Source: a virus | Direction: 5' to 3' (one strand) | Virus record (IMG/VR): IMGVR_UViG_3300037419_001463 | Location: 1-54,463 of that record | DNA length: 54,463 nucleotides | Shown: in pieces, positions 24,972 to 54,463 of the stretch | How the letters are laid out: every line of letters begins with the position of its first letter | Numbering within the stretch: the stretch's first letter is position 1 | Made by a program: the position numbers and the translations under genes | Notes under the pieces: model-generated | Told to the model about the DNA's origin: nothing | Database searches by the model: none | The model's input: the letters and a program-made list of their open reading frames with translations, nothing else

Positions 24972-24991
24972 GTCTGCGTCCTCCGGTGCCA

Positions 24992-25357: not shown

Positions 25358-25547
25358 ACCCGCGTGGTCGGGAGGATGGACTCCTCCCGGCGACACCCAC
25401 TCCCCTGTCACTCGAGACCCCGTGACCAATGAGACGGTGTCTCTCGTGACCGCCACCGACAACTGGCAGTTGTCAGAAGATGAGCTCTCCCGGCCGCGCA
25501 GGCCTCGACCGGGTCGGAGGCCCAGGCGCTACCGGGAAAGCGACGAG

Positions 25548-25802: not shown

Positions 25803-25988
25803 TCACCGCGCTACCGCTTGGACAGCCGAGTCATAGAATCCGGCAACTCCAAAAGAAACTGCATGCGTACGCACACCTTGTCGTATGACGATCGGCCGCT
25901 CAGTATCCTGAGCGCAAGCGTCACGCGACTAGGCGAACGTGTTCATGCCAGCTGTTGTGTCAGCGTCATCACTGCGTGCACATGCACT

Positions 25989-26024
25989 AAAAAAGAGTTG
26001 CCTCCCGGCTGTTAACCGAGAGGC
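25989..26024 (-). terminator. rho-independent terminator of the orphan minus-strand gene
   Basis: Stem GCCTCCCGG/CCGAGAGGC (1 mismatch) at 26000..26024. A6 at 25989..25994 on the plus strand gives a U-tract in minus sense. Confidence 0.65.
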
Positions 26025-26030
26025 ATCTCC

Positions 26031-26273
26031 TCACGCTGCGGCGTACTTGTTCAGCATCCGGCGGTAGGCCTCGACCACGACTCCGTCGTTGTCGTTGTCC
26101 TTCGCCTTGGCGATGAGCTGCTCGAGCAGCTGCATCGTCTTGATGCGTTCCTGGTCCAGGTCCAGGTCCGCTCGTGCCACCTGCTGGTTGGCGTACTGCT
26201 TCACGACGCCGTTCATCGGGTCAAGCCCTGCGATCATGCTCTGCGTGATTGCGTCAGCAAACGGAGATGCCAT
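26031..26273 (-). CDS. hypothetical helical protein (80 aa), orphan minus-strand gene inside the plus arm
   Basis: Internal ATG 26273 lies 7 nt after GGAAGGA. Has its own terminator. The upstream part of the 162-aa track ORF runs through AT-rich non-coding DNA. Confidence 0.6.
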   Translation of the reverse strand: MASPFADAITQSMIAGLDPMNGVVKQYANQQVARADLDLDQERIKTMQLLEQLIAKAKDNDNDGVVVEAYRRMLNKYAAA

Positions 26274-26280
26274 TGGTGCG

Positions 26281-26470
26281 TCCTTCCATAGATGGGAATT
26301 CCAAAAAGTCAATCGAAACAAACGAAACAGGTTTCTAATTTGCATAGATGGTAATTGGATACCTAATACCATATATACATATATAGGGGGTATAGATTGT
26401 TTTGTTTGTTTCTTTTGTATATGTTCCAACCTCACTGAAAAGTTTTCTACATTCGTGACATCCGAAGCAT
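26281..26470. promoter_or_regulatory. AT-rich island with direct and inverted repeats (divergent promoter region and/or replication origin candidate)
   Basis: Sharp compositional drop relative to the flanks. CATAGATGG[G/T]AATT at 26287 and 26343, with ATAGATTG at 26392. GAAACAAACGAAACA (26315) is inverted against TGTTTTGTTTGTTTC (26398). An (AT)n tract lies at 26371..26385. Confidence 0.6.
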
Positions 26471-26752
26471 TCGATGCACGAGGTGGCCGGGTTCGGCCCC
26501 GACTTCGCCCTCGTGACACCCGCTACGGGCTGACTCCCCCGCTCCCCCGGTCTCCGGCGGTCTCCCGCCGCCACAGCCTCCTCGCTGGGTCGTAGGTCGG
26601 CGCAGGGCTCGAAGGCCGTCAGGGCCCGATTCCCGACAATCGCCAGTTGTCAGCCGGGCTAGGTAGAGGCCCGATCTACACCTACCCTTGCTGTTCAGCA
26701 GCCCCGATCGGCGGCCGCGCCTCATACGGTCACTCGATCAGGAGGCGGCGGC

Positions 26753-29700
26753 GTGCCGGAGAAGGACCAGCTCGGTCAGTCGAACCTCGGGCAGCTCGCC
26801 CAGCAGCAGAACCAGCCGGCTGCGCCCGAAGGTCTGCACCAGGCGGCAGGGGCCGCCGAGGGCGTGGTCCGTGGCAACCCGGCCCTGGCACAGTCGAGGC
26901 TCGGGCAGCTCGCCGCCGACGAGGGATATCTCCCGGTCGCGCAGTCCTGGTACACCGGCGCCAACCAGGAGGGGATCCGCAACGGCTGGGACACCGACTT
27001 CTGGAACCGGGCCATGGAGCAGAACACCCGGCTCGGCGAAGAGGGTCTGCTGCACTACCAGTTCGAGCAGCCCGACGCCACCGGCGTGGTGACCTGGGAC
27101 CACGACTCGGCCGACGGCCGGCACACCTACCACTTCGGCGACGTGTACGACAACGGCGTCAAGCAGGGCAACGTCTTCGACCAGTTCGACGAGGACACGG
27201 CCAACCTGATGATGGCCGACATCCTGTTCCCGAAGGAGGACAAGGCCCGGCTGTTCGAGCAGGTCGAGGTCGACCCCCAGACCGGGAAGATCACCGACAC
27301 CTCCGCGCTGGCCGCGGCCGTCCAGGCCAAGCGGCAGCAGAACAACACCGACATCCCGAAGGCCGCGGAGGCCGCCGACTTCAACGCCGACGTCGCGGCC
27401 CGGGCCGAGGACTTCCGCGAGGGCCACGTCGACGAGGCGATCACCGCCGGGGGAGCGGCCGGTGGTGCCGCGCTCGGTGCGGGCATCGGTACCTTCGTCG
27501 CACCCGGTATCGGTACCGCGATCGGTGCCGGCGTCGGTGCCGCGATCGGTGGGCTCGGCGCCCACCTGAACGAGGACGCGCTGGTCGAGCAGGCCGCCCG
27601 TGCCTACGAGATCACCGCGATGAGCGACCGGGAGAACGGCACCGGTGCCGCGATCGCCACCGGGCTGCAGCAGTGGGCCGGGTTCGGCGGGAAGCTGATC
27701 TCCCCGCTGTCGAACACCGTGCAGGGCATCGACGACGCCGCCCAGGGCAAGATCGGCGACGGGGTCTCCGAGTTCTACCGGCTCGACGAGCAGGGCCACT
27801 CGGTGGTCCCGAAGTGGGTGAAGGTCGCCGACGTCGGGGCCAGCATCGGCGACGCCGCGCTGCAGTTCGCTACCCCGATCGGCCGTGGTCTCTACACCGC
27901 CCAGATGTCCGGGGTCATCACCGGCGAGGTGGGCGAGCTCGCGCTGACCGGCGGCAAGTCCTTCGACTACACCCGCGGCGGCTTCGACTCGATCTTCACC
28001 GACGATGAGGGCAACTTCTCCCCGACCCAGGCGCTGGCCGGGATCGGCAAGGTCACCATCGACGCGGTCCAGCTGGGCATGGCCCGGGGCCTGATGAGCA
28101 AGGGCCAGTACGCGCTGGCCGCGGTGGGGGAGAAGCAGGTCGGGGGAGCGGGCACGGGGCTGCTCTCCAGGTTCACCCGACGGATCTCCGGCGGCACCGC
28201 CAAGGAGAACACCGCCGAGCTGGCCGGCTTCCGGTTCACCCTGAACGAGGCAGGCGAGGCCACCGGCCGCCGGGCCACGCTGTCGCTGCTGGCCCCGTCC
28301 GAGTCGCTGCAGGCGCTGAGCGCCCGGGTGCTGGCGATGCGCACCTCGGCCAAGAAGGCCGGCGCCCTGTCGGCCGACGACTTCTACAAGGCGGCCAAGC
28401 AGCTCTCCGCCGGCGAGAAGCGGTGGACCACCGCGCTGGTCACCGGCATGGGGGAGGGCTACGAGGAAGCGGTCCAGGCCGTGCTCGACCCGTACTCCCA
28501 CGACGCCGCGATCTCGATGGGCGACATCGGCAACAGCGCGCTGTACGGCTTCGCCGGCGGTGTCGGCATGGGCGCCGGTGTCGGGATCCGGATGCCGAGC
28601 TCGGCCGACAAGCTCTACGCGATGGCCGCCACCGGCCACCGGCTGCTGACCGGGGGAGAGGAGCTCACCCGCTCGGAGTTCGACCGGCTCCCGGAGGTCG
28701 AGCAGCGGGCCCGGGCCTCCCTGTCCGGGATGGCTAAGGCCACCGCCGACGCGGCCTACACCAAGTTCGTGGAGGACCAGAGCGCCACCCGGACCAAGTC
28801 GGTGGCCGCCATCCACAAGCTGGCCGACGCGATCCAGACCCAGCTCACCTCGAGCCTGGCCACCGCGAACCCGCGGCTCAACGGCGCGTTCGTGATCTCC
28901 CAGCTCGAGGACGCCGGCCGGGTCGACGCCGACGGCAACCTGCTGCCCGGCTACATCCCGGCCGACGGTGTCGGGGCCTCCGCGTTCCAGACCGTGGCGA
29001 ACATGGTCAACCACATGCGCGGGGTCTCGGTCCAGCTCGAGCAGCTGCGGCGGGACCTGGAGCTGGCGACCGAGGCGGCTGCGGCCGACCCGAACAACGT
29101 CGAGCTCACCAACGAGGCGGTCCGGCTGCAGGGCCAGGTCGCGTTCACCGAGTCGGTGCTCGAGCTCGGCCGCAAGCTCAACGAGGACCTCGAGGCCCGG
29201 ATCCACCGGATGTACTTCGACCCGGTCACCGGCGTCCAGCCGAGCCCGGCCGACATCGAGGCCGAGGCCGAGTCGATCAACGCGGTGCTCCGCGACCTGT
29301 TCCACCAGCGCCTCGACCTCGCCCCGGACGGCCAGCCGCTGACCGACCAGGAGAAGCTGGCGCTGGCCCACGCGGTCGGGATGGTCTTCACCCGGGACCC
29401 GCAAGATCAGGCCGGCTCCTACCAGCTGCTGGTCCCGCAGATCAGCGCCAAGCTGACCGCGGCGAACTCCAACGACTTCCTCCAGATCAGCGCGAGCATC
29501 CGGCCGGCGCTGACCGCCGACCACGACGGCGACAAGATCCGCCCGCTCAACGAGCTGATCCTCGACGACCAGGCCTACACCGCCGCCCGGTCCGGTGCGT
29601 TCTTCCTGGGCGCCGGCACCAGCGTCAACGTCGGCACCCCGAAGTACGAGAAGTGGATCCTGGAGTACCTGGGCCAGGCGGCCGGCGGCGCCAACCAGGC

Positions 29701-32700
29701 GCTGGCCAACTTCGCCGAGGGCACCATCCTCTCGATCAGCGACGCGATCCGCCGCCGCTACGACGGGGTCATCGACACCGCCGTGCTCGACAAGGTGCTC
29801 GACCCGTTCGTCGACGCGGCCAAGGCCGGCTCGGACAACGCCCGCGAGATCCTGCTGGATGGTCTCGCGCGTGAGGCCGGCGGCCAGATCACCGAGTTCT
29901 CCCGTGGTCACCTGTCCAACGAGTGGCTCTGGCTGGACCAGCTGATCCGGGCCAGCCTGGACGCCTTCCAGGAGGGCTTCGCCGCGCACAGCCCGGACAT
30001 CGGCCCGGTCCCGAACACCGACGTCGTGCTGCCGAACAAGCAGTCGGTCGACGTGCAGGACCGCAAGGCCGACCGGGCCGCAGTCACCGGCGCCACGGTC
30101 GGGCTGCTGCTCACCGGCGACGCGCCGTTCCGGCAGTCCCAGAAGCTGCACTACTCCGCGCTGGTCGCCGCGGTGGTCTCGGCCGAGGAGGCCGGCTCCC
30201 GCGAGCAGCTGTTCGCGCTAGCCCAGCTCTACGAGGCGCTCGGCCAGGGGCTGGCCACCACCGAGCTCGACGCCGTGCGCGCCAAGGACGACATCACCGC
30301 CAGGGTCTACGCCAGGCTCGACCGAATCGCACGAGACGCAGTAGAGCTGGATCCGGGTCTGAACCGGCATGAGGCCCTGGCGGTGGTGGCGAACCTGCGG
30401 GTGGCTGACATCGACGTCGCCACCGACGGCACCATCACCCCGAACGGCCGGGAGATCTCCCTGGCCCAGCTGCTGCTGCGCCAGTCGCTGGCCCAGTGGC
30501 GCCGCGAGGTCGACGAGGTCTTCGACGCCAGCCCGGAGATGCAGTCGAAGTACCACCGGATCAAGTCGATGACCAACGCCGACGGCCAGGGCCGCAAGGG
30601 TAGCCGGGTCAACGCCAGCCGCGCGTTCATCGAGGTGATCGGCGCCCAGCAGCTGTTCACCCTGCTCGGCGACGACGCCCTGGTCTTCGGCCCGCACCTG
30701 ACCGTCGAGCAGTTCCTGCGCTCCTACGTGGCCATGGACGAGCACGGCCGGCGGGCCACCGACCGCAAGCTGAAGGGGGAGGCCGCCTACCTCGAGGGCG
30801 ACCGGACCCAGCACCACAACCCGCCGTACGACCTGGACGAGGTCACCAACGGGGAGATCTCCGGGTTCCGTGCCGTGGTCGACGCGATCCTGGCGGTCGG
30901 CCACAACCGCATCACTATCGACGAGTCGGCCACCTCCGACAAGGACGTGTCCAAGCCGCACCTGCACGGCGAGCTGGCCGAGCGCAGCTACACCACCGGC
31001 GACCAGCTGCGTGACGCGGTCGCCCGGATCCAGCAGGCGATGCGGGAGTTCACCGGGCTGACCGGCCGCAAGGACGGCGAGCTGACCACCGAGATGGTCG
31101 AGCGGCTGTTCAAGGACAACCCCGACTTCGAGCGGCTGGCGCTGAACCTGATCCCCACCGCCAGCGCCAACGCGGTGATCTTCCGCCGCGAGGACGGCAC
31201 CGTCGACCTGGCGAACTGGTTCTACAAGACCTTCACCCTGGACCCGGCCGAGGCCGAGGTGCACGTGTGGCGCAACGTGCTGTTCGCGCAGCTGCGGGCC
31301 GCCGGCGTGAACTTCAACGAGGAGGAGGTCAACGAGGGCGACGCCGGCCGGAAGATGGCCAAGCTCGACCGGCGTACGCACCGGCTGATCCAGCGCCTGG
31401 CGCTCACCCCGGACGGCGGGCTGCTGCTGCGGCAGCTCTTCGACCAGATCGAGTCCGCCAAGTCCATGGAAGGGCTGATGCGCTGGATCAACACCACGCC
31501 CGGCATCCGGGGCGAGCAGGCACCGCTGACCGCCTGGGTCGACGACGTCGCCGACTTCGACGCCGACAAGGCCGAGGGCGGCTGGACCAAGAAGCTGTCC
31601 GGCTCCGAGCTGCGCGAGGCGATCTCCGCCCTGCAGCGCGGCGCCCAGAACCTGGTCGACGACCTGGTCGAGGAGCGGGCCGCGTTCAAGCGCGACACCC
31701 GGGTGATCAACGCGATCGAGAAGGATCTGAAGAACGGCGGCGGCAAGACGCTGTCCCTGCTCGAGACCGCGATCGACGAGGCCGCCGAGCGCGTGGTCGG
31801 GCTGGGCCCGTCGGCGATGATCTACCAGACCGTGGCCGCGGCCCGGGGCTTCTACCCGCAGGCGCACACCAAGGGCAAGAACCCCGACTACCTGGACCCG
31901 GCGGCCGCCCTCGAGGCACACCGGGACGCCTTCGGCTACGTCACCAACTTCGAGCGGGTGATGGCCGCGCTGACCAGCGTCAACCTGGACGCGGTTTCCG
32001 GCAACATGTCCGAGCTGGCCAAGGACAACCTGCGCACCATGGACGACTTCGGCCGGCCGGTGGAGTGGCAGAAGCCCACCGCCGAGCAGTGGCTGGAGCT
32101 GTTCAAGAACCCCGACACCCGGCCGATGGCCCGGGCGATCCTGTTCCCGCAGGCGATGGAGCGCGACTTCGACGGCCAGACCCGGCCCAAGCTGCTGGTC
32201 GGCAAGGACCTGAAGGCGCTGCTCGAGGGCACCAGCCACAAGGACCTGTTCCCCAAGCACGGCCGACTGGACCGGGACCCGGCGCTGAAGTACGTGGCCG
32301 CGCTGGAGGCCGAGGCCCGCAAGCACGGCGGCCACTTCTCGGTGCAGCGGCTGGCCAACGACATCGTCATCGCCCGCACCTCAGCGGCCGACCACGTGCT
32401 GTCGACGGCCGAGCTGGAGAAGATGACGGTCGAGGCGTACCGCCAGATCGCCGAGCTCTTCCAGGCCACCGCCTCGATCGCCGCGGCCGCGCACACCCCG
32501 GGCACCGACCCGCTGGCCGAGATGCGCACCAAGGTCCGGCAGGCCCAGCGCACGGCCGCCGTCGCCCGCCGGGTCGGGATGGCCGGCACCGCGGCCGACG
32601 CCGAGCTCGGGAAGCAGACCTTCGAGATCCTGGTCCGTGACCGGGAGGCCGAGCTCGAGGCCGAGCGCCGGCTGCTGCTGGACGCCTCCGCGGCCGCCGA

Positions 32701-35700
32701 CGACCCGGTCGAGGCAGCCCGCCTGGCGCAGGCCGCCGAGGACGCGCTGGCCGACCTGGACCGGTTCAAGACCCGGCTCGAGCTGCTGCTCGACGAGGAC
32801 ATGACCGGCCGCGTGGTCGCCATGTTCAGCCTGCCCGCCGACCAGGCCGCGGCCGCCCCGGTCAAGGACGCGCTGGTCGACTACGTGCTGACCCACCTGT
32901 CGATCATGGAGCGGTCGTCCTCGAGCATGCTGCTGCTCGACAAGGTCACCCGGCAGCTGCAGGACTCCGGCCGGGCCGGTCAGCTCGACCTGAGCGCAGG
33001 GGAGTGGGACCAGCTCTCGCGCGTGGTGATCGCCGACTACATCTCGGCGCTGACCGCCACCACCGCTGCCGGTGTCTCGGTGGCGCCGTTCCCGGACGCC
33101 GACCACACCGAGGACCAGCGGTACTACGACACCACGTTCTCCTACCTGGTCGACCCGTTCTTCGACGAGAACCACCCGCTGATGAAGGCGGCCAAGCACC
33201 TGCACGGGCTGGCCGGCCGGCTCGGGATGCCGCCGGCGGACGAGACCGACGTGACCCGGTTGCTCGACCGGGGGATCCTCGGCGAGTACAACCTCGGCCA
33301 GTGGACCGCCGAGATCCCGCGGCTGAGCGTCGAGGCGAACCAGCGGCTGGACTCCTCGGCCGCCGAGGTCGCCATCGCCATGAACGGCAACGCGCCGAAG
33401 ACCCAGGCCGTGGTCTCGGCCGCCACCCGCCGCACGTTCAAGGTGCCGGGCCCCGAGCTGCTCTCGGCCGCGAGGCTGAACTGGGACCAGCTGAACCGCA
33501 CCGCCTTCGACGAGGTCGAGCTCACCATGCCCGGCGGCGCCACGGCGCTGCGGCCGCTGGCCCAGCTCAACAACCGGTTCGCCCGGTCGGTGGTGCTCAA
33601 CTACGTCGACGGCGCCGGTCAGGCGCAGCAGGTCGACCTGCTCGCCGGGGCTCCGAACCTGGGCCGGGTGTGGCCCGGTGACGAGGTTCCGGCCAACACC
33701 GGCTACCAGCTGATCCACCTGGACCGGGTCCGGCAGGCGGTCGAGGACTTCACCCGGAACCTCCAGGTCGACCCGCACGGCCCCGGTGTCTCGGTGGCCA
33801 TCGAGTTCTTCCACCCCGACAGCCAGCCAGCCGAGCCGGAGTGGATGAACAACCTGTTCTTCGAGGGCACCAGCTTCCGGCTGGACGCCGACCACCACGA
33901 GTCGCTCAACGCCACCCTGTGGTTCGCGTTCTCCTCGATCAGCCAGACCGGGCAGCGCAACGCCCTGGACGCCAGCAAGCTCGGCATGCCGGCCATGAAG
34001 GTGGTGCCCACCCCGACGGCCGCCGACCTGGCCACCATCGAGTCGACCTGGCCGGTGGACTTCTCCGCGATGCTGCGCGCCAAGACCCAGGTGATGCTCA
34101 CCTCCGACCTGGGCTTCGGCAAGCTCGAGGAGGAGCCGGGCAGCGAGTTCTACAACGCGGTCTACAAGAACCTCAAGCTGCGCCACTTCGTCCGCACCGC
34201 CGACGCGCTGCTCACCGCCGAGCAAGTGATTGCCATGCAGGCCCGTGGGGAAACCCTGCCGGAAGAGGCTTCACTCTGGGTCCCGTCCGACGACGTGCTC
34301 CGCTCGATGCTGGGGGAGCAGGGCACCCAGGGCGTGGCCCGGCTCTTCGACGACCAGCTCGAGGTCGACCTGGCCAAGGTGCCGACCTACCGCGGCGTCA
34401 CCGAGACGATGCGGCAGCGGTTCGCCGAGGGCATGACCGGGCAGAAGGCCGAGCTCGCCTCGACCTCGGTGGCGCACCGGGCCCGGCAGCAGCTGCTCGA
34501 GATCCGGCCCTACCTCGACGACGCCGCCCGCCACGCCTACGACGCCAAGATGCGGTTCTTCGCAGACGAGCGCCGCGACGCCTACGCCGAGCGGGCCGCC
34601 TGGTCCGGCCGCACCGGCCAGGGTGGCTTCGACCCGAAGGCCAACCTGGGCCGGGCGCTGCAGCGTGCCGACGGGATGCTCCGGGCCGAGAACATCGCCT
34701 TCGACTGGTCCGAGGCCGGGATCACCTTCATCGGCCCCCGGGTCTCCGCCGACTCCGACCTGGGCCGGATGCTGCTGCAGGAGCTGAACGCCGCGCTGCA
34801 GAACGACGGCTACCGCACCGGCTGGATCTACCGGGAGGGCAGCGAGGCCAACGAGCCGCAGGGCATCCTCTCCGAGGTCAGCCTGTCCGGCCAGAAGCGC
34901 GCGCTGCGCGTGGCGCCGGGCGACCTGGTCGTGGTCGAGCTCGACAGCTTCGGCGGTGACGACGTGCTGGCCCGGAAGCGGCTGGACTACCTGGTCGACC
35001 ACGGCGCCACCGTGGTGCTGGGCGAGGACGAAGGCGGCAACAACCTCCGGGTCGAGATGGCGAACTACCTGGAGTCCCGCGCCTACGAGCGGTACGCCGG
35101 CTCCGGCTTCGTCTACCGCCCGGTGGAGACCAACACCCGCTACCAGAACCAGCGGGCCCGGGTGTCCACGCTGCTGGAGACCCGCGGCGTGAGCTCCCGC
35201 TCGCACGTGGCCGCGCTGCTGCTGCCGGACCAGGCGATCGAGGAGAACGCCGCCTGGGTCAACGGCGACAACCCGCGGCTCGGTGGGATCGCCACCACCC
35301 TCAACCTGGTGCCCACCGACTTCCTGGCCGGGTTCAACGTCCCGGTCGAGGGCTTCGCCAACCGCAGCCAGATCGAGGACGTGCGCCAGCAGCTGCGCAG
35401 CCTGGACAACCCCGAGGGCCGCGACCTGCTCCGCAAGCTGGCGGGGGAGTCCGGCATCGAGCTGGACCAGGCGCTGACCCGGATGTTCGACCGGTTCGAC
35501 TCCACCGACGGTGCGGTGCTGCCGGCCGCCGGCCAGGAGTTCGGCACCGGCGACCTGATCCCGCTGGTCGACTCCTTCGGCCGGATCCTGCTCTACCGCC
35601 ACGGCTACAAGGCGCCGACCCGCGAGCAGCTCGAGCGGCAGTTCGAGCAGTCCGAGGGCAAGAACGTCGCGGTCTTCTCCGCCGAGCCGCAGCCCGCGGC

Positions 35701-38700
35701 CACCACCCACCGCGGCACGGTGATCGGGTTCAAGCCGCGCGCCGGCTACGGCATGGCCGTCGAGCTCGACATCCCGCTGCCGGTCTTCGGCGACAAGATG
35801 GTGCTCGAGTGGAACGGCATGAAGTACCTGCTGACCCCGAAGCCGGACAGCGTGGTGCTCCCCGACCACGGGTTCTTCCCGCAGTGGGGGATCGACCTGA
35901 TCACCAGCGCCCACGACGTCGCCAGCAAGGAGGCGTTCGACGGCCTGGTCAACAACCACCGCAACGCCTTCGCCTACTTCGGTGTCGACTTCCTGCCCGA
36001 CGTGGCCAAGTTCTTCGGCGTCGACCTGCACGTGGCCCGGCAGATCCTGCGGGCGATCTCGACCAGCGGGCCGCGGATCTCGGTGCAGGCCGCCGACGAG
36101 CTGCTCAACTCCGCCCACCTCGGCCCCGGCTTCATGGACCAGCTGACCCAGGTCGCCACCCTGCTGCCGGACTCGGTCGCCAACAACTGGACCCGCCGGC
36201 TCGAGGACGCCGCCACGGTCGAGGGGCAGATCACCCGGGCGCTGATCATCTACCTGTCGGTCAACGGCACCCGGGTCGAGGACGTGCTGCAGTCCGGCGG
36301 GTTCAACGACGACACCGCTGCGCCCGAGGCTCAGTCGAGGCTGATGCCGCGCCTGTTCACCCAGGTCTTCGACAACGCCGCGATCGACTCGCCGCTGCGC
36401 CGGGAGATGAACCGCCGGTTCAACGCCCAGCTGCACAACCCCAACGGTGACGGCACCGGCTACAGCCTGAGCCAGACCTGGCAGTTCAGCGTCCGCAACG
36501 CCGACCGGTCCAAGAACCTGGTCGGGATGCTGCAGTTCTCCGAGGCCCACTCCTCGGGCGACAGCCCGCTGAAGAACGGCATGGCCTTCGACGAGCGGGA
36601 GCGGCAGGCGGTCAGCCAGCACTCGGCCGCCATCGCCTACCAGGCGATCGGCGCCCGCACCGCGATGGACCGCGACGTCGAGAAGGCCCGGGCCTTCGCC
36701 GAGGGCCGCGGCATCGACCGGGACCTGGTCGACGGCGGTGTCTGGCGGCTGCTGACCAACGTCCACAAGGACGACGTGGCCGCGGCCGCGAACTGGCGCA
36801 CGCCCACCCTGGCTGAGGCCGAGGCCCGGCGCCGGGCGCGCGAGCACCTGACCAAGTTCCGGCAGCCGGTGACGGCCGCCCGCGAGCCCAGCGACGAGGA
36901 CGAGACCGGCTGGAACGAGCAGCAGCGCAAGGAGGCCGCCAAGATCGGCCGGCAGATCCTGCAGAAGCTGAACCTGCACGACAACCAGATCGAGCTCGTC
37001 GACTTCTGGGTGCGGCAGATGAACGGCGCCGACGACCGGATCACCGGCAAGGCCTACCTCGAGGAGGCCGCGGCGATCCGGGACAACGTCACCAACGGCT
37101 TCCTGCCGGTGGCCGGCGCCGAGATCCCGCTGCTGCACGTGCACGACCTGCAGCTGATCCACCGGGTCAACAAGGGCAAGGCGGACGGCTGGGCGCCGTA
37201 CGAGACCCTGGACCGGGACCGGACCGCCGGCTCGTGGGACGAGTGGGTGCAGGTCGCGCTCGGCTCGATATTCCTGTCCGAGGACTCCTTCGACCCGATC
37301 TACCGGCCGGCGCTCGACGGGCTGCTGCACACCTACCAGAACGCCACCAAGGCGCTGCTCGACATGCCGGTCTCGGTGGACCGGATGGTGCAGGAGCGGC
37401 TGCTCGACCCGCAGTTCAACGCCCTGGTCGCGGTCTCCCTGGACGCCAACGAGAACCGGCGGGCGATCGAGCCGATGCTGCTCGGAGTCGCCAACACCAC
37501 CGTCGACGACCTGCTCGGCGGTGTCCGGATCTCCGGCAAGTCCAAGTCCGCCCCGGCCAGCGAGCGCGCGAAGAAGCGGGCCCGGCTGCACAAGTGGCGC
37601 AAGGAGACCGGCACCCCGCTGCCTGTCGAGGCGCCGCTGAAGGACATGGCGGCCAACGGCTCGAGGTTCATCGAGAAGTCGACGGCGAGCTCGTCGCTGG
37701 CCCGCATGCTGATCAACGCCCGCGTCGGCACCGCGCTGATCAACCCGGCGCTGTACGTCTCGATGGGCCCGGAGCAGTGGATGCGCGGAGCCCTGGACCA
37801 GGGCGCCAACCTGATCACCGGCCAGGCGACCGACGGCGTGCTGGCCACCGCGGCCGCCAAGCTGCACCTCTCGCAGTACAGCACCGACCAGCTCGCCAAG
37901 CTGTCCCGGCTCTACCAGACCCTCGGTGACAACGCCGACTTCAAGACGATGATCAACCGGGAGCTCTGGTACCTGCGGCCGCACGAGCCGGGTATGAGCC
38001 GGCCCGAGCGGTGGCTGGAGAACTACGCCAAGATCGGCTCCCGGATGCAGGACCCGACCCGGGGGATGAGGGCCAAGACCCTGGCCCGCCGCTACGTCGA
38101 CGCCGCCTGGCAGCACATCCAGGCGACGCCGGCGATGAACGTGATCAGCCTGGACCGGCTGATCGCCGAGCTCTCGGTGAACCCGAAGTTCCTCGAGGAC
38201 TACTTCCCCGAGGCGCACCAGGCCGCCACCAACGCCATCGCCCAGCTGCGGTCGCTGAAGAACACCGTGCTGTCCCAGACGCTGCGCGGGATCTACGAGC
38301 CGCTTTCAGAGTCCACCCACAGCGGCCGGGCCTTCTTCGGCACCGTGCTGCTGCGGATGCCGCTGCTGTTCAGCGGCTACGCGATGAACGTGCTGACCAC
38401 GATCACCGGCATGCAGGGGCTCAACGACGCCACCGCGATGTGGCTGCACGGCCGCAACAAGGGCCCGAACTCCCTGTTCGGCCGGATCCAGGCCAAGCTC
38501 CGCGGCGAGCAGTTCGACCCGCAGCGCGACGCCGAGTTCGACATGAGCACCGTCATGGAGGGCATCGACCTCACCCGGTCCTTCATCCGAGGCGGGCTGA
38601 CCCACTCCGCGCTGTTCATGTTCGGCATGATGGCCAGCGGGCTGGGCCTGTCCGGTGAGGACGACGAGACCAAGAAGCGCCGTCGGCTGGCGCAGCTGCA

Positions 38701-40546
38701 GGGCGCCGGCTTCGTCTACGACCCGCGCCGGATCGAGAATGACTTCCGCAACGCCGACGCGCTGTTCGTCGACTGGCTGCCGTTCAACCTGGACTCCTAC
38801 TTCCGGGTGACCGGTGACGACGCGCCCGGCGGCGCCCGGTCGATGGCACAGGCGCACTGGATGCTCAAGCAGTTCATTAGCCCGATCATCGGCATGGAAC
38901 GGTTCTACGAGACCGGCGACTTCCACCAGGTGACCTGGGGCTTCCAGGACGCGCTCGGCTCCTTCCCGCTGATCAACACCCTGATGTGGGACGACGCGGT
39001 CTCCACCGCCAGCGAGATGGCCAAGATGGCTGACGACGAGCAGAAGCTCGGCGGCCCCTCGAACATGGTGGCCAGCGCCGGGTTCCTCACCAACGCCGTC
39101 GGGGTCTACGAGCGGATGCTGTTCGAGAACAGCTTCGTGAACATGATCTACACCGGCCACGACCGGTACGACCGTGACCCGTACGCGCTGCCGCTGCGGG
39201 ACAGCGACGGCACCATCCAGCGCGACATCGAGGGCCAGGCCCGCAAGCAGAACATCTCGCTGGAGAAGTTCGTCGACCCGGAGACCGGCCAGGTCCGCGA
39301 GGGCTACATGGGCCGCGACTACCAGTCGGGGATGTTGCACGCGCTGACCGAGAACCGGGCCACCCTGGCCGCGTTCATGTGGGCGCTGCCGGGCTACGGC
39401 GACGAGGACTACTGGCGCTACAACATGCCGATCAAGACCCGGGAGATCGAGAAGGACCCGGTCTCCAAGGACGAGGCCGAGGCCTTCGTCCGGGCCGCGG
39501 TCCAGGGCGCCGGCGGGCTGCAGAACCTGACCGCCGACGAGCTCTCCCAGATCTGGAAGAACCAGGCCAAGGCGGCCGGCGTGTACGTCGACTGGTCCAT
39601 GCTCGACGACCAGGCGGCCGCGGCCGAGCAGTTGGGCGCAGCAGGCACCGGTCAGCCGGCCGCGCTCTCGATGCTCGACAAGGACGGGCGCGAGGTGCTC
39701 ACCAAGGCCGGCGCCTGGGGCGTGGTCCGCGGCCTGGCCAAGGGCAGCGTGCAGCTCGGCGACGCCAGCCTGGCCGGCATCTACATCACCCCCGAGGTCC
39801 GCGAGGAGATCCAGAAGGAGTGGATGGCCGAGCTGATCCAGGAGGGCGTCAACATGGGCCTGGACCAGACCAAGGCCACCAGCCGGATGAAGCGGCTCTG
39901 GTTCGGTCCGCTCGACGACCCGAGCATCCAGGGGCTGGGCGACATCCTGTGGAGCAAGGACATCTCCTACTCCGACACCGCCACCTACAACCAGCTGAAC
40001 ACCACCTACGTGATGGGCCCCGACGGCCGCCCGTGGGCCACCGGCTGGACCCGTGACGGGATCGCCGGTGCGCTGGGCCTGAAGCCGCTGAAGCGGGCCT
40101 ACGTCTCCGAGCAGGGCGCCACCGGCACCGACAACCGGCTCAACACCACCGACCTGGTCAACGGGCTCAACACCGGCCTGCGCGCCCTCGAGCTGGTCGA
40201 CGAGACCCGCAACATCCCGACCGACGTCGAGATCGGCAAGAAGATCGAGGACGCGATCAAGGAGGCCTCGGCCCAGACCTACACGCCGTACGACACCAGC
40301 AAGACCGGTGGCGGTGGCTACGGCGGGTACGGCGGCTACGGCTACCGCAGCTACGGCGGCGGCTACGGCGGCGGCGGAAGCGGCTACTTCCCCGACTTCA
40401 CCCGGATGTACGCGCTGCCGAACAACATCTCGCCCTACGGCAACAACATCCCGTTCATCAACACGAGCAACCCGATCATCCGTCGCGCCGACGTCCGGCG
40501 GGAGCGGGTCTGGTCAGAGCGAGGAAGGCTGAAGCAGTGGCAGTAG
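26753..40546 (+). CDS. giant virion-module polyprotein (4,597 aa) with a beta-prime-like DPBB catalytic motif; candidate packaged RNA polymerase / ejection protein
   Basis: Uninterrupted 13,794-nt ORF. GTG start 7 nt after AGGAGG. GC3-rich throughout. The end overlaps the portal start by 10 nt. Motifs are detailed in the findings. Confidence 0.9.
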   Translation: MPEKDQLGQSNLGQLAQQQNQPAAPEGLHQAAGAAEGVVRGNPALAQSRLGQLAADEGYLPVAQSWYTGANQEGIRNGWDTDFWNRAMEQNTRLGEEGLLHYQFEQPDATGVVTWDHDSADGRHTYHFGDVYDNGVKQGNVFDQFDEDTANLMMADILFPKEDKARLFEQVEVDPQTGKITDTSALAAAVQAKRQQNNTDIPKAAEAADFNADVAARAEDFREGHVDEAITAGGAAGGAALGAGIGTFVAPGIGTAIGAGVGAAIGGLGAHLNEDALVEQAARAYEITAMSDRENGTGAAIATGLQQWAGFGGKLISPLSNTVQGIDDAAQGKIGDGVSEFYRLDEQGHSVVPKWVKVADVGASIGDAALQFATPIGRGLYTAQMSGVITGEVGELALTGGKSFDYTRGGFDSIFTDDEGNFSPTQALAGIGKVTIDAVQLGMARGLMSKGQYALAAVGEKQVGGAGTGLLSRFTRRISGGTAKENTAELAGFRFTLNEAGEATGRRATLSLLAPSESLQALSARVLAMRTSAKKAGALSADDFYKAAKQLSAGEKRWTTALVTGMGEGYEEAVQAVLDPYSHDAAISMGDIGNSALYGFAGGVGMGAGVGIRMPSSADKLYAMAATGHRLLTGGEELTRSEFDRLPEVEQRARASLSGMAKATADAAYTKFVEDQSATRTKSVAAIHKLADAIQTQLTSSLATANPRLNGAFVISQLEDAGRVDADGNLLPGYIPADGVGASAFQTVANMVNHMRGVSVQLEQLRRDLELATEAAAADPNNVELTNEAVRLQGQVAFTESVLELGRKLNEDLEARIHRMYFDPVTGVQPSPADIEAEAESINAVLRDLFHQRLDLAPDGQPLTDQEKLALAHAVGMVFTRDPQDQAGSYQLLVPQISAKLTAANSNDFLQISASIRPALTADHDGDKIRPLNELILDDQAYTAARSGAFFLGAGTSVNVGTPKYEKWILEYLGQAAGGANQALANFAEGTILSISDAIRRRYDGVIDTAVLDKVLDPFVDAAKAGSDNAREILLDGLAREAGGQITEFSRGHLSNEWLWLDQLIRASLDAFQEGFAAHSPDIGPVPNTDVVLPNKQSVDVQDRKADRAAVTGATVGLLLTGDAPFRQSQKLHYSALVAAVVSAEEAGSREQLFALAQLYEALGQGLATTELDAVRAKDDITARVYARLDRIARDAVELDPGLNRHEALAVVANLRVADIDVATDGTITPNGREISLAQLLLRQSLAQWRREVDEVFDASPEMQSKYHRIKSMTNADGQGRKGSRVNASRAFIEVIGAQQLFTLLGDDALVFGPHLTVEQFLRSYVAMDEHGRRATDRKLKGEAAYLEGDRTQHHNPPYDLDEVTNGEISGFRAVVDAILAVGHNRITIDESATSDKDVSKPHLHGELAERSYTTGDQLRDAVARIQQAMREFTGLTGRKDGELTTEMVERLFKDNPDFERLALNLIPTASANAVIFRREDGTVDLANWFYKTFTLDPAEAEVHVWRNVLFAQLRAAGVNFNEEEVNEGDAGRKMAKLDRRTHRLIQRLALTPDGGLLLRQLFDQIESAKSMEGLMRWINTTPGIRGEQAPLTAWVDDVADFDADKAEGGWTKKLSGSELREAISALQRGAQNLVDDLVEERAAFKRDTRVINAIEKDLKNGGGKTLSLLETAIDEAAERVVGLGPSAMIYQTVAAARGFYPQAHTKGKNPDYLDPAAALEAHRDAFGYVTNFERVMAALTSVNLDAVSGNMSELAKDNLRTMDDFGRPVEWQKPTAEQWLELFKNPDTRPMARAILFPQAMERDFDGQTRPKLLVGKDLKALLEGTSHKDLFPKHGRLDRDPALKYVAALEAEARKHGGHFSVQRLANDIVIARTSAADHVLSTAELEKMTVEAYRQIAELFQATASIAAAAHTPGTDPLAEMRTKVRQAQRTAAVARRVGMAGTAADAELGKQTFEILVRDREAELEAERRLLLDASAAADDPVEAARLAQAAEDALADLDRFKTRLELLLDEDMTGRVVAMFSLPADQAAAAPVKDALVDYVLTHLSIMERSSSSMLLLDKVTRQLQDSGRAGQLDLSAGEWDQLSRVVIADYISALTATTAAGVSVAPFPDADHTEDQRYYDTTFSYLVDPFFDENHPLMKAAKHLHGLAGRLGMPPADETDVTRLLDRGILGEYNLGQWTAEIPRLSVEANQRLDSSAAEVAIAMNGNAPKTQAVVSAATRRTFKVPGPELLSAARLNWDQLNRTAFDEVELTMPGGATALRPLAQLNNRFARSVVLNYVDGAGQAQQVDLLAGAPNLGRVWPGDEVPANTGYQLIHLDRVRQAVEDFTRNLQVDPHGPGVSVAIEFFHPDSQPAEPEWMNNLFFEGTSFRLDADHHESLNATLWFAFSSISQTGQRNALDASKLGMPAMKVVPTPTAADLATIESTWPVDFSAMLRAKTQVMLTSDLGFGKLEEEPGSEFYNAVYKNLKLRHFVRTADALLTAEQVIAMQARGETLPEEASLWVPSDDVLRSMLGEQGTQGVARLFDDQLEVDLAKVPTYRGVTETMRQRFAEGMTGQKAELASTSVAHRARQQLLEIRPYLDDAARHAYDAKMRFFADERRDAYAERAAWSGRTGQGGFDPKANLGRALQRADGMLRAENIAFDWSEAGITFIGPRVSADSDLGRMLLQELNAALQNDGYRTGWIYREGSEANEPQGILSEVSLSGQKRALRVAPGDLVVVELDSFGGDDVLARKRLDYLVDHGATVVLGEDEGGNNLRVEMANYLESRAYERYAGSGFVYRPVETNTRYQNQRARVSTLLETRGVSSRSHVAALLLPDQAIEENAAWVNGDNPRLGGIATTLNLVPTDFLAGFNVPVEGFANRSQIEDVRQQLRSLDNPEGRDLLRKLAGESGIELDQALTRMFDRFDSTDGAVLPAAGQEFGTGDLIPLVDSFGRILLYRHGYKAPTREQLERQFEQSEGKNVAVFSAEPQPAATTHRGTVIGFKPRAGYGMAVELDIPLPVFGDKMVLEWNGMKYLLTPKPDSVVLPDHGFFPQWGIDLITSAHDVASKEAFDGLVNNHRNAFAYFGVDFLPDVAKFFGVDLHVARQILRAISTSGPRISVQAADELLNSAHLGPGFMDQLTQVATLLPDSVANNWTRRLEDAATVEGQITRALIIYLSVNGTRVEDVLQSGGFNDDTAAPEAQSRLMPRLFTQVFDNAAIDSPLRREMNRRFNAQLHNPNGDGTGYSLSQTWQFSVRNADRSKNLVGMLQFSEAHSSGDSPLKNGMAFDERERQAVSQHSAAIAYQAIGARTAMDRDVEKARAFAEGRGIDRDLVDGGVWRLLTNVHKDDVAAAANWRTPTLAEAEARRRAREHLTKFRQPVTAAREPSDEDETGWNEQQRKEAAKIGRQILQKLNLHDNQIELVDFWVRQMNGADDRITGKAYLEEAAAIRDNVTNGFLPVAGAEIPLLHVHDLQLIHRVNKGKADGWAPYETLDRDRTAGSWDEWVQVALGSIFLSEDSFDPIYRPALDGLLHTYQNATKALLDMPVSVDRMVQERLLDPQFNALVAVSLDANENRRAIEPMLLGVANTTVDDLLGGVRISGKSKSAPASERAKKRARLHKWRKETGTPLPVEAPLKDMAANGSRFIEKSTASSSLARMLINARVGTALINPALYVSMGPEQWMRGALDQGANLITGQATDGVLATAAAKLHLSQYSTDQLAKLSRLYQTLGDNADFKTMINRELWYLRPHEPGMSRPERWLENYAKIGSRMQDPTRGMRAKTLARRYVDAAWQHIQATPAMNVISLDRLIAELSVNPKFLEDYFPEAHQAATNAIAQLRSLKNTVLSQTLRGIYEPLSESTHSGRAFFGTVLLRMPLLFSGYAMNVLTTITGMQGLNDATAMWLHGRNKGPNSLFGRIQAKLRGEQFDPQRDAEFDMSTVMEGIDLTRSFIRGGLTHSALFMFGMMASGLGLSGEDDETKKRRRLAQLQGAGFVYDPRRIENDFRNADALFVDWLPFNLDSYFRVTGDDAPGGARSMAQAHWMLKQFISPIIGMERFYETGDFHQVTWGFQDALGSFPLINTLMWDDAVSTASEMAKMADDEQKLGGPSNMVASAGFLTNAVGVYERMLFENSFVNMIYTGHDRYDRDPYALPLRDSDGTIQRDIEGQARKQNISLEKFVDPETGQVREGYMGRDYQSGMLHALTENRATLAAFMWALPGYGDEDYWRYNMPIKTREIEKDPVSKDEAEAFVRAAVQGAGGLQNLTADELSQIWKNQAKAAGVYVDWSMLDDQAAAAEQLGAAGTGQPAALSMLDKDGREVLTKAGAWGVVRGLAKGSVQLGDASLAGIYITPEVREEIQKEWMAELIQEGVNMGLDQTKATSRMKRLWFGPLDDPSIQGLGDILWSKDISYSDTATYNQLNTTYVMGPDGRPWATGWTRDGIAGALGLKPLKRAYVSEQGATGTDNRLNTTDLVNGLNTGLRALELVDETRNIPTDVEIGKKIEDAIKEASAQTYTPYDTSKTGGGGYGGYGGYGYRSYGGGYGGGGSGYFPDFTRMYALPNNISPYGNNIPFINTSNPIIRRADVRRERVWSERGRLKQWQ

Positions 40547-52884: not shown

Positions 52885-53202
52885 ATGAGCTACACCTTCA
52901 CCCGGCCGCGGTTCAAGACGTCCACCCGTCTGGCCAAGGGCCCCCGTCACGGCTCGGTCACCGTCGACCTGGCCTCGCTGGCCGCCGACGGTGACAACGC
53001 CACCACCACCGTCGCGGTGGCCGGCGCCGAGGTCGGCGACAACGTCACCGTCCACCCGGAGCTCCCGGTCAACGACCTGGTCTACAAGGCCTACGTCTCG
53101 GCCGCGGACACGGTCACGGTCATCGTCTCGAACCCGACCGCCGGTGCGATCGACGCGCCCTCGGTCGAGCTCCGAGTCGTGGTCTGGAAGGCCGACGCCT
53201 AG
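52885..53202 (+). CDS. hypothetical beta-rich protein (105 aa)
   Basis: ORF track. ATG after AGAGAAAGG. Confidence 0.6.
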   Translation: MSYTFTRPRFKTSTRLAKGPRHGSVTVDLASLAADGDNATTTVAVAGAEVGDNVTVHPELPVNDLVYKAYVSAADTVTVIVSNPTAGAIDAPSVELRVVVWKADA

Positions 53203-53204
53203 CC

Positions 53205-53381
53205 ATGGCCCGGCGCTTCTGGAACAGCCGTCGATTCATCCAGGCCACACCCCTGGGTGGATCGACGGCTGACCGGCCGGTCAACCCGCTGGTCGGGTTC
53301 ATGTACTTCGACCAGACCCTCAACAAGCCGGTCTGGTGGGACGGCACCAACTGGCGCACGGCGTCCAACGTCATTGCGTGA
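53205..53381 (+). CDS. 58-aa ORF carrying a tail-fibre-type motif (RP..P..GF.YFD.TL.KP.WW.G..W)
   Basis: ATG 53205. Sequence MARRFWNSRRFIQATPLGGSTADRPVNPLVGFMYFDQTLNKPVWWDGTNWRTA. Below the track cutoff. Confidence 0.45.
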   Translation: MARRFWNSRRFIQATPLGGSTADRPVNPLVGFMYFDQTLNKPVWWDGTNWRTASNVIA

Positions 53382-53392
53382 CCAGCTGGGCT

Positions 53393-53636
53393 GTAGTCAC
53401 GTAGTCACCCTATAGTCACCCCCGGGGTGACTATACGTTTCCGCAGGTCAGAGGCCCTTTTCGGCCGTTATAGTCACGTAGTCACCCAACTTTAGAAACG
53501 AATCTGTAGAGCCAGAACTACAGGGTTTCAAGTTCTCGGGTGACTACGTGACTATGACCCGCCTGATGGTCGCGTTTCCGCAGGTCAGAGGCGGTAGTCA
53601 CGTAGTCACCCACCCAGTGGTCGGCGGGGTGACTAC
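53393..53636. repeat. second array of about 11 copies of GTAGTCACC / GGTGACTAC, with one full and one partial composite element
   Basis: Forward copies start at 53393, 53401, 53412 (variant), 53470 (variant), 53478, 53594 and 53602. Reverse copies start at 53426 (variant), 53539, 53548 (variant) and 53628. The composite unit is 53401..53455, with an extra GTTTCCGCAGGTCAGAGGCGG box at 53574..53594. Confidence 0.9.
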
Positions 53637-53819
53637 AGCCCGTTGTAGGGTCCTCGAGCTAAGCTCTAGTAAGACCACTAAAACAGTCCCGATAACATAC
53701 CTTATGTCAAGTCGGGGCTGTCACTTCTCCCCTGGGCTGGACATCGCCGTTCCAGCAGCTACGGTCGGTACAACTCATTCACTCATGCGGATCGCGTTCC
53801 CTACCGACCTAGGAACACC

Positions 53820-54463
53820 ATGAGTCAGAGTGAGAAGTCGGGTTACTTCCAGGCGCTGAAGGCAGCCGGGGTCACCTTCGACAGGCACTACCGCGAGTAC
53901 ACGACCGCCGAGCTCAAGGCGGCCTACGACCGGCTCCCGTCGCAGCCGCAGCTGCCGACCCCGCCCTCCGACGTCGTCCGTACCGACGCCGACGGCCTGG
54001 TCCCGCCCGCTCCGGGCGTCGTGCCCGAGCCGGCCTTCGACCCGGCCGCCCTGGCCGAGGCATACGCCGGTCTCGTCCAGCCTGAAGGCCCGGCCGTCGC
54101 CCGACCCGAGCCGTACCCCGTGTTCGAGGAGCCCGCTCCCCCGCCGCTCCCGGTCCGTGCGGCCGACCCGAACGAGATGGCCGGCGCCCGGCTGAACACC
54201 AAGGACGCCGACGAGCCGATCCGCCGTGACGAGCACGGCCGCCTCTGGTACCAGGAGGAGGTCCGCAAGCCGGGCTACCCCAAGCCCCGCGGCCGCCGCG
54301 TGCTGACCTACACCGACACCGGCACCGAGACCCGGACCCTGGTCACCGGCAAGGAGAACAACGGCTCCGACGTCGTCGAGACCTTCGAGGTCGCCGGCAC
54401 CGGGCCGGGCCGCACCGCCCAGGTGAAGATCACGCTGCCGTCCTACCAGGTCGGGATCTACAG
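53820..54463 (+). CDS. 5-prime part of the ~285-aa hypothetical protein gene that continues at 128..341 after circularisation
   Basis: ATG 53820. Open to the window end. Pro-rich linker, then RKPGYPKPRGRRVLTY... The last 127 nt duplicate the window start. Confidence 0.7.
   Translation, partial: MSQSEKSGYFQALKAAGVTFDRHYREYTTAELKAAYDRLPSQPQLPTPPSDVVRTDADGLVPPAPGVVPEPAFDPAALAEAYAGLVQPEGPAVARPEPYPVFEEPAPPPLPVRAADPNEMAGARLNTKDADEPIRRDEHGRLWYQEEVRKPGYPKPRGRRVLTYTDTGTETRTLVTGKENNGSDVVETFEVAGTGPGRTAQVKITLPSYQVGIY
54337..54463. repeat. second copy of the 127-bp terminal overlap
   Basis: Identical to 1..127. Confidence 0.95.

Follow-up and report, generated by a model that had tools for sequence, protein, structure and literature searches.

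Isolated relatives of the phage treated here are the podoviruses of Microbacterium cluster EK, the singleton Burro and Arthrobacter phage MissAmericana, which are noted for one gene of more than 13 kb (PMC7302621). For cluster EK/Burro podoviruses, no repeat arrays and no regulatory or replication signals have been described; in the Microbacterium clusters EC, EG and EI, single repeat motifs occur 14-30 bp upstream of start codons, scattered along operons (PMC7302621). An origin beside a replication gene is known from pRN1, where it lies ~54 bp 3' of the prim-pol/SF3/winged-helix rep gene and contains GTG/CAC motifs (PMC4234260). In this work we analyzed a viral DNA of 54,463 nt (IMG/VR record IMGVR_UViG_3300037419_001463, positions 1-54,463), called the window in the following, and in particular an intergenic repeat cluster near its right end, termed array 2. 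Portal protein and gene order group the window with the cluster EK, Burro and MissAmericana podoviruses. Array 2 is read here as the second of two copies of a module on which proteins assemble along double-stranded DNA, and it looks more like a replication origin or a regulatory protein-DNA assembly than a simple hairpin promoter.

The module and its variants

The repeat cluster is real and far from chance. An exhaustive count of the core 7-mer TAGTCAC gave 26 copies genome-wide, where about 3 are expected from base composition, and 25 of these fall within two regions of at most 365 bp each (14 copies in 24993-25356, array 1, and 11 in 53394-53635, array 2). This bears out the clustering, the single further copy outside both loci (24002-24008) and, at the level of the 7-mer, the roughly 11 copies in 53393-53636 that had been proposed from the sequence alone. 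The longer word GTAGTCACC, allowing at most one mismatch, has 44 matches in the window compared with 10.3 +/- 2.9 in shuffled sequences, and none of 100 shuffles reached 44; 9 of the 44 lie in 53393-53636. The heart of the box, CAGGTCAGAG, has five copies in the genome, all of them within the two arrays. As for the sole outlying TAGTCAC (GTAGTCACG, 24001-24008), it is located in a long minus-strand open reading frame (23427-24008) about 1 kb to the left of array 1.

The module measures ~240 bp and consists of 8-bp sites flanking a 15-bp box. Here the site reads GTAGWCAC; copies of it form direct pairs, spaced by 8 and 11 bp, and an inverted pair. The module has 2-3 sites and a site palindrome first; next are the box and a tandem spaced by 8 bp, and beyond an AT-rich spacer lies the mirrored half (Table 1). 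Within each unit, 1-3 direct sites 8-11 bp apart precede an inverted site, which pairs with the last of them as a palindrome; after a further 4-5 nt comes the box GTTTCCGCAGGTCAGAGGC and, 14-27 nt later, the final tandem, with a site spacing of exactly 8 bp. Two units face each other over a ~50-bp spacer in array 1, as they do in array 2 of many relatives. The right half of array 2 is rearranged in the window and in the relatives L048 and L302, where it comprises a reverse tandem, a plus-oriented box, a forward tandem and an inverted site.

Most of the local features named in the original prediction were recovered at their places: three forward tandem 17-mers (the first at 53393-53409), one reverse tandem, a second box that reads GTTTCCGCAGGTCAGAGGCGG over 53574-53594, and a unit at 53401-53455 with the sequence quoted. 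This unit is identical to 25123-25177 at 50/55 positions (90.9%) and shares 85.7% identity with the reverse-strand unit 25339-25285. The inverted repeat CTGTAG-N8-CTACAG exists as well, one base to the left (53504-53523) of where it had been placed (53505-53524).

The spacer of array 2 is rich in A and T, with a G+C content of 21/51 (53488-53538; ~41% by direct count) against 66.8% for the genome. In array 1 the minimum is 52.5% in 200-bp windows, and the spacers of relatives are comparably AT-rich as judged by eye only. Many relatives carry a spacer dyad, GGAAACTTT...AAAGTTTCC. It recurs just inside the tandems as GGAAACTTT(T)AG ... CTAAAGTTTCC (53487-53538 and 25209-25252; L003, L027, L054 and others), reads AACTTTAGAAAC ... 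GTTTCAAGTT in the window, and may be the site for a further dimeric protein. Directly after the box-proximal tandem, most units show an nAnnnT hexamer (TAAACT, TAACTT, TATCTT, CAACTT). At its left edge (24993-25078), array 1 contains a third, degenerate unit, whose palindrome is ATAGTCACC-N9-GGTGACTAC; it has one site at 25032, and no tandem follows its weaker box (CCCAGGTCAGAGC, 25060-25074).

Table 1. Features of the two arrays and of the genes discussed, in window coordinates
Feature	Position	Strand	Description
Array 2	53393-53636		11 TAGTCAC-core sites and two boxes
TAGTCAC starts in array 2	53394, 53402, 53413, 53471, 53479, 53595, 53603	+	
TAGTCAC starts in array 2	53427, 53540, 53548, 53629	-	
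Left-unit site cluster	53394-53434	+	Direct sites at 53394, 53402 and 53413; inverted site at 53427
Left-unit palindrome	53412-53434		ATAGTCACCCCCGGGGTGACTAT; arms behave as independent half-sites in relatives
Box 1	53437-53455	+	GTTTCCGCAGGTCAGAGGC; copy of the Actinomycetota-wide motif
Box-proximal tandem	53470-53486	+	ATAGTCACGTAGTCACC; two sites, 8-bp spacing
Central spacer	53487-53538		CTGTAG-N8-CTACAG (53504-53523) and AACTT/AAGTT dyad; dyad also in relatives
Reverse tandem	53539-53555	-	GGTGACTACGTGACTAT; two sites
Box 2	53574-53592	+	GTTTCCGCAGGTCAGAGGC
Forward tandem	53594-53610		GTAGTCACGTAGTCACC; inverted partner site at 53628-53636
dif-like XerC/XerD site	53684-53711	+	AGTCCCGATAA-CATACC-TTATGTCAAGT; directly downstream of array 2
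Array 1	24993-25357		14 sites; two face-to-face units around spacer 25209-25252
Array 1, degenerate box	25060-25074	+	
Array 1, box	25163-25177	+	
Array 1, box	25284-25298	-	
Ribbon-helix-helix gene	24699-24972	-	First leftward gene beside array 1; Pfam RHH_1, 21.9 bits (cutoff 20.5)
Prim-Pol	7805-8713	-	Replication-protein class adjoining box-plus-iteron arrays in other elements
DUF5906 SF3-type helicase	8658-10067	-	Same class as Prim-Pol entry
Large terminase gene	4017-5534		Same block as gene A, 4.9 kb downstream of array 2
Gene A	53820-54463, continuing over the junction to 341	+	285 aa

The original prediction describes the structure of the unit, palindrome plus box, accurately; a reading of the unit as a hairpin with promoter is not supported, and the interpretation holds in part only. 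In phages that mix TAGTCAC and TAGACAC, the T/A variants of the palindrome arms are uncompensated in 5/5 cases, contrary to what selection on a stem would give; the only two paired arm variants both come from L087, where all sites are TAGACAC. Furthermore, the hairpin 8-mer is also used in direct tandems. For these two reasons, the hairpin was rejected as the functional form. The palindromes do fold stably as single strands (z-scores -2.6 to -5.0), as inverted protein sites trivially give such folds. We hence read the "hairpin", from the pattern of its variants, as two independent double-stranded protein half-sites. A scan for sigma-70-type promoters found no site in 53200-53900 or 24800-26800, and a scan of both arrays for T-tract or intrinsic terminators found none, apart from a weak central inverted repeat on the minus strand. 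Rfam returned no family at its gathering score and only chance-level matches at E <= 10. The TRIT terminators of Mycobacterium were dismissed as a different, palindromic motif confined to that genus. Resemblances to a DnaA box, a parS half-site, domain IV of the signal recognition particle RNA, the Tn3 inverted repeat, Hin/Gin recombination sites and T7/SP6 promoters were set aside as too weak.

Relatives were recovered from IMG/VR and metagenome contigs by an exact-pattern scan for the tandem and by searches with gene A, the first gene downstream of array 2. The module is found at the position of array 1 in L003, L009, L013 and L014, and upstream of gene A in L016/L019, L024, L027, L033/L043, L048/L049, L052, L054, L301 and L302. 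The unit facing gene A keeps its position and orientation in L049, L052, L054, L024, L033, L301, L302 and L051; box 2 is plus-oriented in the window, L048 and L302 and inverted in L052, L054 and L301. The site itself varies. It is GTAGTCAC in the window, L003, L013, L048, L052, L054, L301 and L302, mixed with GTAGACAC in L009, L016 and L024, and GTAGACAC only in L051 and L087. L057 uses TTGTGACAC with a diverged box, and L056 has GTGGCCAC / GTGTACAC. Since the site sequence shifts with lineage while the architecture stays, the reader of the sites is probably phage-encoded, with a drifting specificity. TAGTCAC arrays also occur in two unrelated contig types, L037/L044 (48% G+C) and L021 (57% G+C).

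MissAmericana carries the site CTCGTTAC without a box at the position of array 1: six of the eight TCGTTAC copies in its genome lie within 260 bp (L001, 17802-18062). This cluster corresponds to array 1 but uses another site. It sits in a 72-nt imperfect inverted repeat, and one pair of its sites is a tandem with 9-bp spacing. In L058 and MissAmericana, no array was found upstream of gene A. This shows that array 2 is an optional extra copy. The original prediction had the same element mark all three points where a transcription unit should begin. The composite unit is indeed present at both loci, one unit facing each gene block; a new transcription start at array 2, however, is not a requirement of the family, as array 2 is absent from L058 and MissAmericana.

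Downstream of array 2 lies a dif-like XerC/XerD site, which is unexpected in a podovirus of lytic appearance. Compared with the predicted dif of Frankia alni (PMC3025954), it matches at 11/11 positions in the XerD arm and 7/11 in the XerC arm. Its core is 48 bp away from array 2, which is on the XerC-arm side and within ~290 bp upstream of the core. The site is kept in the same place in L048/L049 and L302. Its presence suggests either a circular replicon in which dimers are resolved or an integration mediated by Xer.

The box in mobile DNA of Actinomycetota

The box is not peculiar to this phage or to transcription starts: it is also found near cos ends, attP cores, tRNA genes and primase-helicase genes. 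With array 2 as query, blastn matches fell at the far right ends of mycobacteriophage genomes. With 40 nt around the box as query, 617 actinophage records were matched, from phages of Mycobacterium, Streptomyces, Gordonia, Rhodococcus, Corynebacterium and Nocardia. In these, the distance of the box to a cos end is mostly 40-110 bp, both orientations occur, and a second, degenerate copy is often close by, as are short repeats specific to the phage; boxes close to cos ends are found in LeBron, Che9c and cluster F phages. An exact scan of IMG/VR added at least 119 contigs of 40-74% G+C. In species-representative genomes, almost all of the matches listed were from Actinomycetota. The core consensus is (W)WWMCCGCAGGTCAGAGGC and the extended one RYRWWW-CCGCAGGTCAGAGGC, with T-rich positions after it; over a span of 15-21 bp, at least 14 positions are near-invariant.

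Integration sites are another setting. Among the genomic matches listed, 25/124 boxes lie 4-29 nt after a tRNA 3' end, mostly at 4-11 nt; these involve 11 tRNA types, and 21/25 are oriented like the tRNA. Many of them continue, as seen by eye, into a hairpin with CAGAGGCC as 5' arm and then two direct repeats, which look like arm-type integrase sites. In the attP of Adephagia, the box has the P-arm repeats to one side and the tmRNA-type core to the other; the terminator just past the core contains another box-like copy. The L5 attP shows GCTGGTCAGAGGG...GCCCTCTGGCC-TTTTT directly after the core, followed by what we take to be the P4/P5 sites and an inverted CTGACCTGGG. In attP and tRNA settings, the 3' half of the box is often also the 5' arm of a terminator hairpin.

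Other boxes are surrounded by contig-specific iterons, for example GTACGCA x12, CGCGTCA x10, GCCGCAC x9 and ACATGGA x10. At least five copies of a 7-mer within 130 bp were present at 10% of the viral box loci listed, compared with 2% of control windows. In three IMG/VR contigs of ~47% G+C (L092, L114, L137), two perfect DnaA boxes TGTGGATAA, 10 bp apart, lie ~150 nt downstream of the box, so that this locus looks like an origin. Here a TGTGAC-N5-TCACA palindrome and a TATATA element precede the box, and blastn found no match for these contigs in phage or plasmid collections. At four genome loci (L195, L266, L270, L277), the box is ~200 bp from a canonical dif-like site, CGCCGATAAT-N5-ATTATGTCAAG, and has a TGAATCA-A-TGATTCA palindrome ahead of it; these may be elements integrated at dif. 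At five further loci (L198, L199, L214, L227, L281), it is directly upstream of TGTCAGTG-N8-TTGAAT and a leaderless-looking ATG, an arrangement that resembles the PafBC/RecA-NDp DNA-damage promoter of Actinobacteria.

No gene family was found consistently beside the box, and literature searches with the 8-mer and box strings returned irrelevant primers only, besides one phiJoe cloning primer containing the box. The box hence appears to be an undescribed cis-element of Actinomycetota mobile DNA. The known host factor for L5 integration is mIHF. Its chromatin immunoprecipitation sequencing gave no sequence motif (PMC6155035), and an mIHF motif as explanation for the box was dropped for this reason. 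We may speculate, with some doubt, that the box is the site of a sequence-specific DNA-architectural or replication factor conserved across Actinomycetota, a functional counterpart of the integration host factor (IHF). Phages, prophages and integrative elements would then pair the box with sites of their own, i.e., Int arm sites in attP, terminase sites at cos and initiator iterons at origins, and the arrays of the window would be one elaborate case with at least 10 iterons and two boxes per module.

Readings of the module

For the module as a whole, we tentatively favour an origin of the iteron type, or a site of initiator assembly, with a host-factor site at its heart and with replication initiation as its likeliest, though by no means assured, output. 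A phage-encoded DNA-binding protein would fill the sites cooperatively; a candidate class is the origin-binding domain of Prim-Pol/SF3-helicase replication proteins. A host factor common to Actinomycetota would bind or bend the box, as IHF does in lambda attP, cosB and plasmid origins, and the wrapped complex would melt or mark the AT-rich spacer. Array 1 would be the family-conserved ori copy and array 2 an extra one, comparable with P4 ori/crr or SPP1 oriL/oriR. Since the two copies mark the boundaries of operons, transcription is probably gated or insulated by the bound complex as well.

The layout is that of an origin, with direct and inverted iterons on either side of an AT-rich spacer. 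Moreover, four box-plus-iteron arrays, three of them among the largest, are located 36-117 bp 3' of primase-helicase genes: in L138 after Prim-Pol and AAA_25, in L090 after DUF5906, in L225 after Prim-Pol, Toprim and AAA_25, and in L021, with the same TAGTCAC sites as the window, after an NrS-1-like prim-pol and VapE. DUF5906 helicases are encoded both by the window phage and by the unrelated, TAGTCAC-bearing L037. The dif-like Xer site beside array 2 suggests a circular replicon that needs dimer resolution.

Several observations weigh against an origin. The arrays of the window are 8.6 kb and 15 kb away from its Prim-Pol/helicase genes (7.8-10.1 kb), no DnaA boxes were found near either array, and no initiator or DNA-binding domain common to the window, L037 and L021 was detected. 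GC and AT skew follow gene orientation alone, with no break at array 2; as skew tracks the gene strand, it is uninformative as an origin test. L058 and MissAmericana lack array 2. No box-binding protein is known, and mIHF offers no motif (PMC6155035). Finally, the arrays lie exactly where promoters or operators are expected, with one unit per gene block, which fits transcription control equally.

Accordingly placed operator-promoter complexes are the main alternative, possible if doubtful. The sites would be operators of a phage repressor or activator, and each unit would drive a non-canonical promoter toward one gene block; the promoters of array 1 would face each other like pR/pL of coliphage 186, and the box would belong to the promoter or serve as an architectural element upstream. 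Besides the one unit per block and the orientation toward gene A kept in relatives, this would account for the ribbon-helix-helix gene and the weak helix-turn-helix gene on the flanks of array 1, for the nAnnnT hexamer, like an actinobacterial -10 element, after most box-proximal tandems, and for those genomic boxes just upstream of the promoter-like TGTCAGTG-N8-TTGAAT. However, no -35/-10 pair passes the scan, and the two flanking genes, as candidate regulators, are not kept beside the arrays of relatives. Relative to gene A, the second box is turned one way in some relatives and the other way in others, array 2 is absent in L058 and MissAmericana, 10-14 sites are many for an operator, and comparable arrays elsewhere are found 3' of primase genes. 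A structured nucleic acid is very improbable, be it an RNA hairpin acting as terminator or attenuator or an extruded DNA-hairpin promoter of the N4 type with the box as conserved initiation box. It would fit the stable single-strand folds, the first palindrome lying 31 nt past the stop codon of the last tail gene, and the box 3' halves that form terminator-hairpin arms in attP and tRNA contexts; the phage also encodes a giant protein of 4597 aa, whose Burro homologue is virion-associated (PMC7302621). In the published analysis, though, this giant protein has no similarity to the N4 virion RNA polymerase (PMC7302621). The uncompensated arms, the 8-mer in direct tandems and the lack of a T-tract terminator or Rfam family speak against any such structure, and in array 1 the convergent units lie between divergent operons, where there is nothing to terminate.

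A packaging region is unlikely and, like the maintenance roles considered after it, accounts for part of the data only. In this case, the sites of a pac or cosB-like region would bind the small terminase subunit, the box would bend DNA like IHF at I1 of lambda cosB, and headful packaging would start upstream of the block ending in the large terminase gene. Array 2 heads that very block, hundreds of actinophages have the box 40-110 bp from their cos ends, and the related cluster EK phages have circularly permuted genomes (PMC7302621). Yet array 1 belongs to the early region and is distant from the packaging genes, the same sites adjoin replication genes in L021 and L037, gene A has no terminase-like family or fold, and L058 and MissAmericana do without array 2. 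Improbable, too, is a role in maintenance, with the array as accessory sequences for XerCD at the dif-like site, as in cer/psi, or as a centromere-like site bound by a ribbon-helix-helix protein, as in R1 parC or the omega heptads. The array on the XerC-arm side, 48 bp from the core, has the geometry of the cer accessory sequences; the window, L048 and L302 combine the dif-like site with the asymmetric form of the array; and a ribbon-helix-helix gene abuts array 1. Nevertheless, array 1 and the modules of most relatives, among them L052, L054, L024, L033 and L301, are without a dif-like site, no ParA or ParM ATPase was found among the proteins scanned, and the ribbon-helix-helix gene is not conserved.

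Which protein reads the sites was approached through the neighbouring and shared genes. The ribbon-helix-helix protein has only three homologues among 5.8 billion proteins, and it was rejected as the binder for this rarity and for its absence beside the arrays of relatives. The 84-aa open reading frame with a weak helix-turn-helix next to array 1 was rejected since it is not conserved beside these arrays either; both genes are absent beside the same arrays in L003, L013 and L014 and are accessory genes. Between the window-like, L037/L044 and L021 types, tblastn and BLASTP found no common protein except the SF3 ATPase core of the DUF5906/VapE helicase, which aligns across the TAGTCAC-bearing types with E = 0.013.

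Genomic setting and known systems

The ends of the window share an exact 127-bp repeat (1-127 = 54337-54463) and thus mark a circular assembly, 54,336 bp in length. Its genes form three blocks, one on the minus strand and two on the plus strand. The minus-strand block runs from ~24972 down to ~6850 and holds the replication genes for Prim-Pol, DUF5906 SF3-type helicase, DNA polymerase I, a gp2.5-like single-stranded DNA-binding protein and an exonuclease. The plus-strand block ~25400-53381 encodes the giant protein, portal, capsid and tail proteins, and the other, from 53820 through the junction to ~5534, encodes gene A, lysis proteins and the large terminase. As stated in the original prediction, the gene at 53820 crosses the junction (it ends at position 341), and the gap before it, put at about 440 bp, amounts to 438 bp between the stop codon (53381) and the ATG (53820). 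No tRNA genes were found in the window.

The giant gene (26753-40546) is a single open reading frame that takes up a quarter of the genome; its product is homologous to that of the giant gene of EK/Burro phages, and a Pfam scan found no domain in it. Gene A has more than 900 metagenomic homologues and no sequence match in Pfam, PHROG or PDB, and its AlphaFold2 model (mean pLDDT 80) gave no Foldseek match at E <= 0.001. These searches gave no support for gene A as a small terminase or regulator. PDB sequence searches with the conserved proteins encoded at 20899-21702 and 17808-18794 were empty.

Two further non-coding elements lie to the right of array 1. The conserved block 25880-25940 consists of a hairpin CGCTCAG-tatc-CTGAGCG followed by CAAGCGTCACGCGACTAGG and is ~93% identical over ~45 nt to MissAmericana (PQ184795) 18189-18233 and to Araxxi, Arete and others, phages which otherwise have almost no nucleotide similarity to the window; Rfam gave no match for it. 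An AT-rich element at 26274-26450 (38-43% G+C), including TATATACATATATAGGGGGTAT, is bounded by the giant gene and by a small conserved gene that points leftward (26031-26273). Cluster EK phages and MissAmericana have kept this element, a candidate for an early promoter or an origin common to the family. On the minus strand, a strong hairpin resembling a terminator is seen at 26025-25999.

The podovirus family to which the window belongs is abundant in metagenomes, as the homologues of gene A indicate, with the cluster EK phages, Burro and MissAmericana as isolated relatives. To EK/Burro-type phages, the module gives a concrete cis-element together with natural specificity variants for finding the binding protein. 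The box, in turn, neighbours cos ends in hundreds of sequenced mycobacteriophages and is also contained in the classic attP of L5. Should a host factor indeed read it, this factor would be a missing component of actinophage integration, packaging and replication. In practice, the box may serve as a handle for predicting att, cos and ori regions and for vectors for Mycobacterium, Streptomyces and Corynebacterium.

Among known systems, the origin types of P4 and pRN1 come close. The P4 octamer is TGTTCACC and forms two clusters. Like the window, P4 ori/crr (with its alpha primase-helicase) and the pRN1-type origin have ~8-bp repeats ending in CAC, both direct and inverted, two separated clusters per genome and a replisome of primase and SF3 helicase. 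The pRN1 origin lies just 3' of the primase-helicase gene, as do the box-plus-iteron arrays of four other elements (PMC4234260, PMC2777425). In contrast, the window arrays are far from the Prim-Pol/helicase genes, no winged-helix origin-binding domain was identified, and the module embeds a conserved, non-repeated box and has mirror symmetry around an AT-rich core.

The box is in turn comparable with IHF sites, which lambda uses in attP (H1, H2, H') and in cosB (I1) and which are also part of plasmid origins. It is likewise a single asymmetric site among element-specific protein sites and recurs in the integration, packaging and replication regions of many unrelated elements. To our knowledge, Actinomycetota lack IHF; for its known functional analogue, mIHF, there is no sequence motif (PMC6155035). 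The box bears no resemblance to the IHF consensus WATCAANNNNTTR, and its near-invariant positions (at least 14) are far more than those of IHF sites. By analogy, it may work like an IHF site; it is not classed as a family member because its sequence is unrelated to the IHF consensus.

Ribbon-helix-helix arrays, i.e., the pSM19035 omega heptads, R1 ParR-parC and the MetJ metboxes, resemble the window in their contiguous 7-11-bp repeats, direct and inverted, that flank a core; MetJ metboxes also share the 8-bp tandem spacing, and a ribbon-helix-helix gene abuts array 1. Unlike in these systems, however, the window gene is nearly unique and absent from array-bearing relatives, spacings of 11 and 14 bp occur as well, and no partition ATPase was found. 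The motifs of Microbacterium clusters EC, EG and EI are short conserved repeats in intergenic regions of actinophages, as are the sites of the window, whereas the window module is a clustered array of several components. The array is a variation on the theme of iteron and operator arrays, and the box embedded in it is the most interesting lead.

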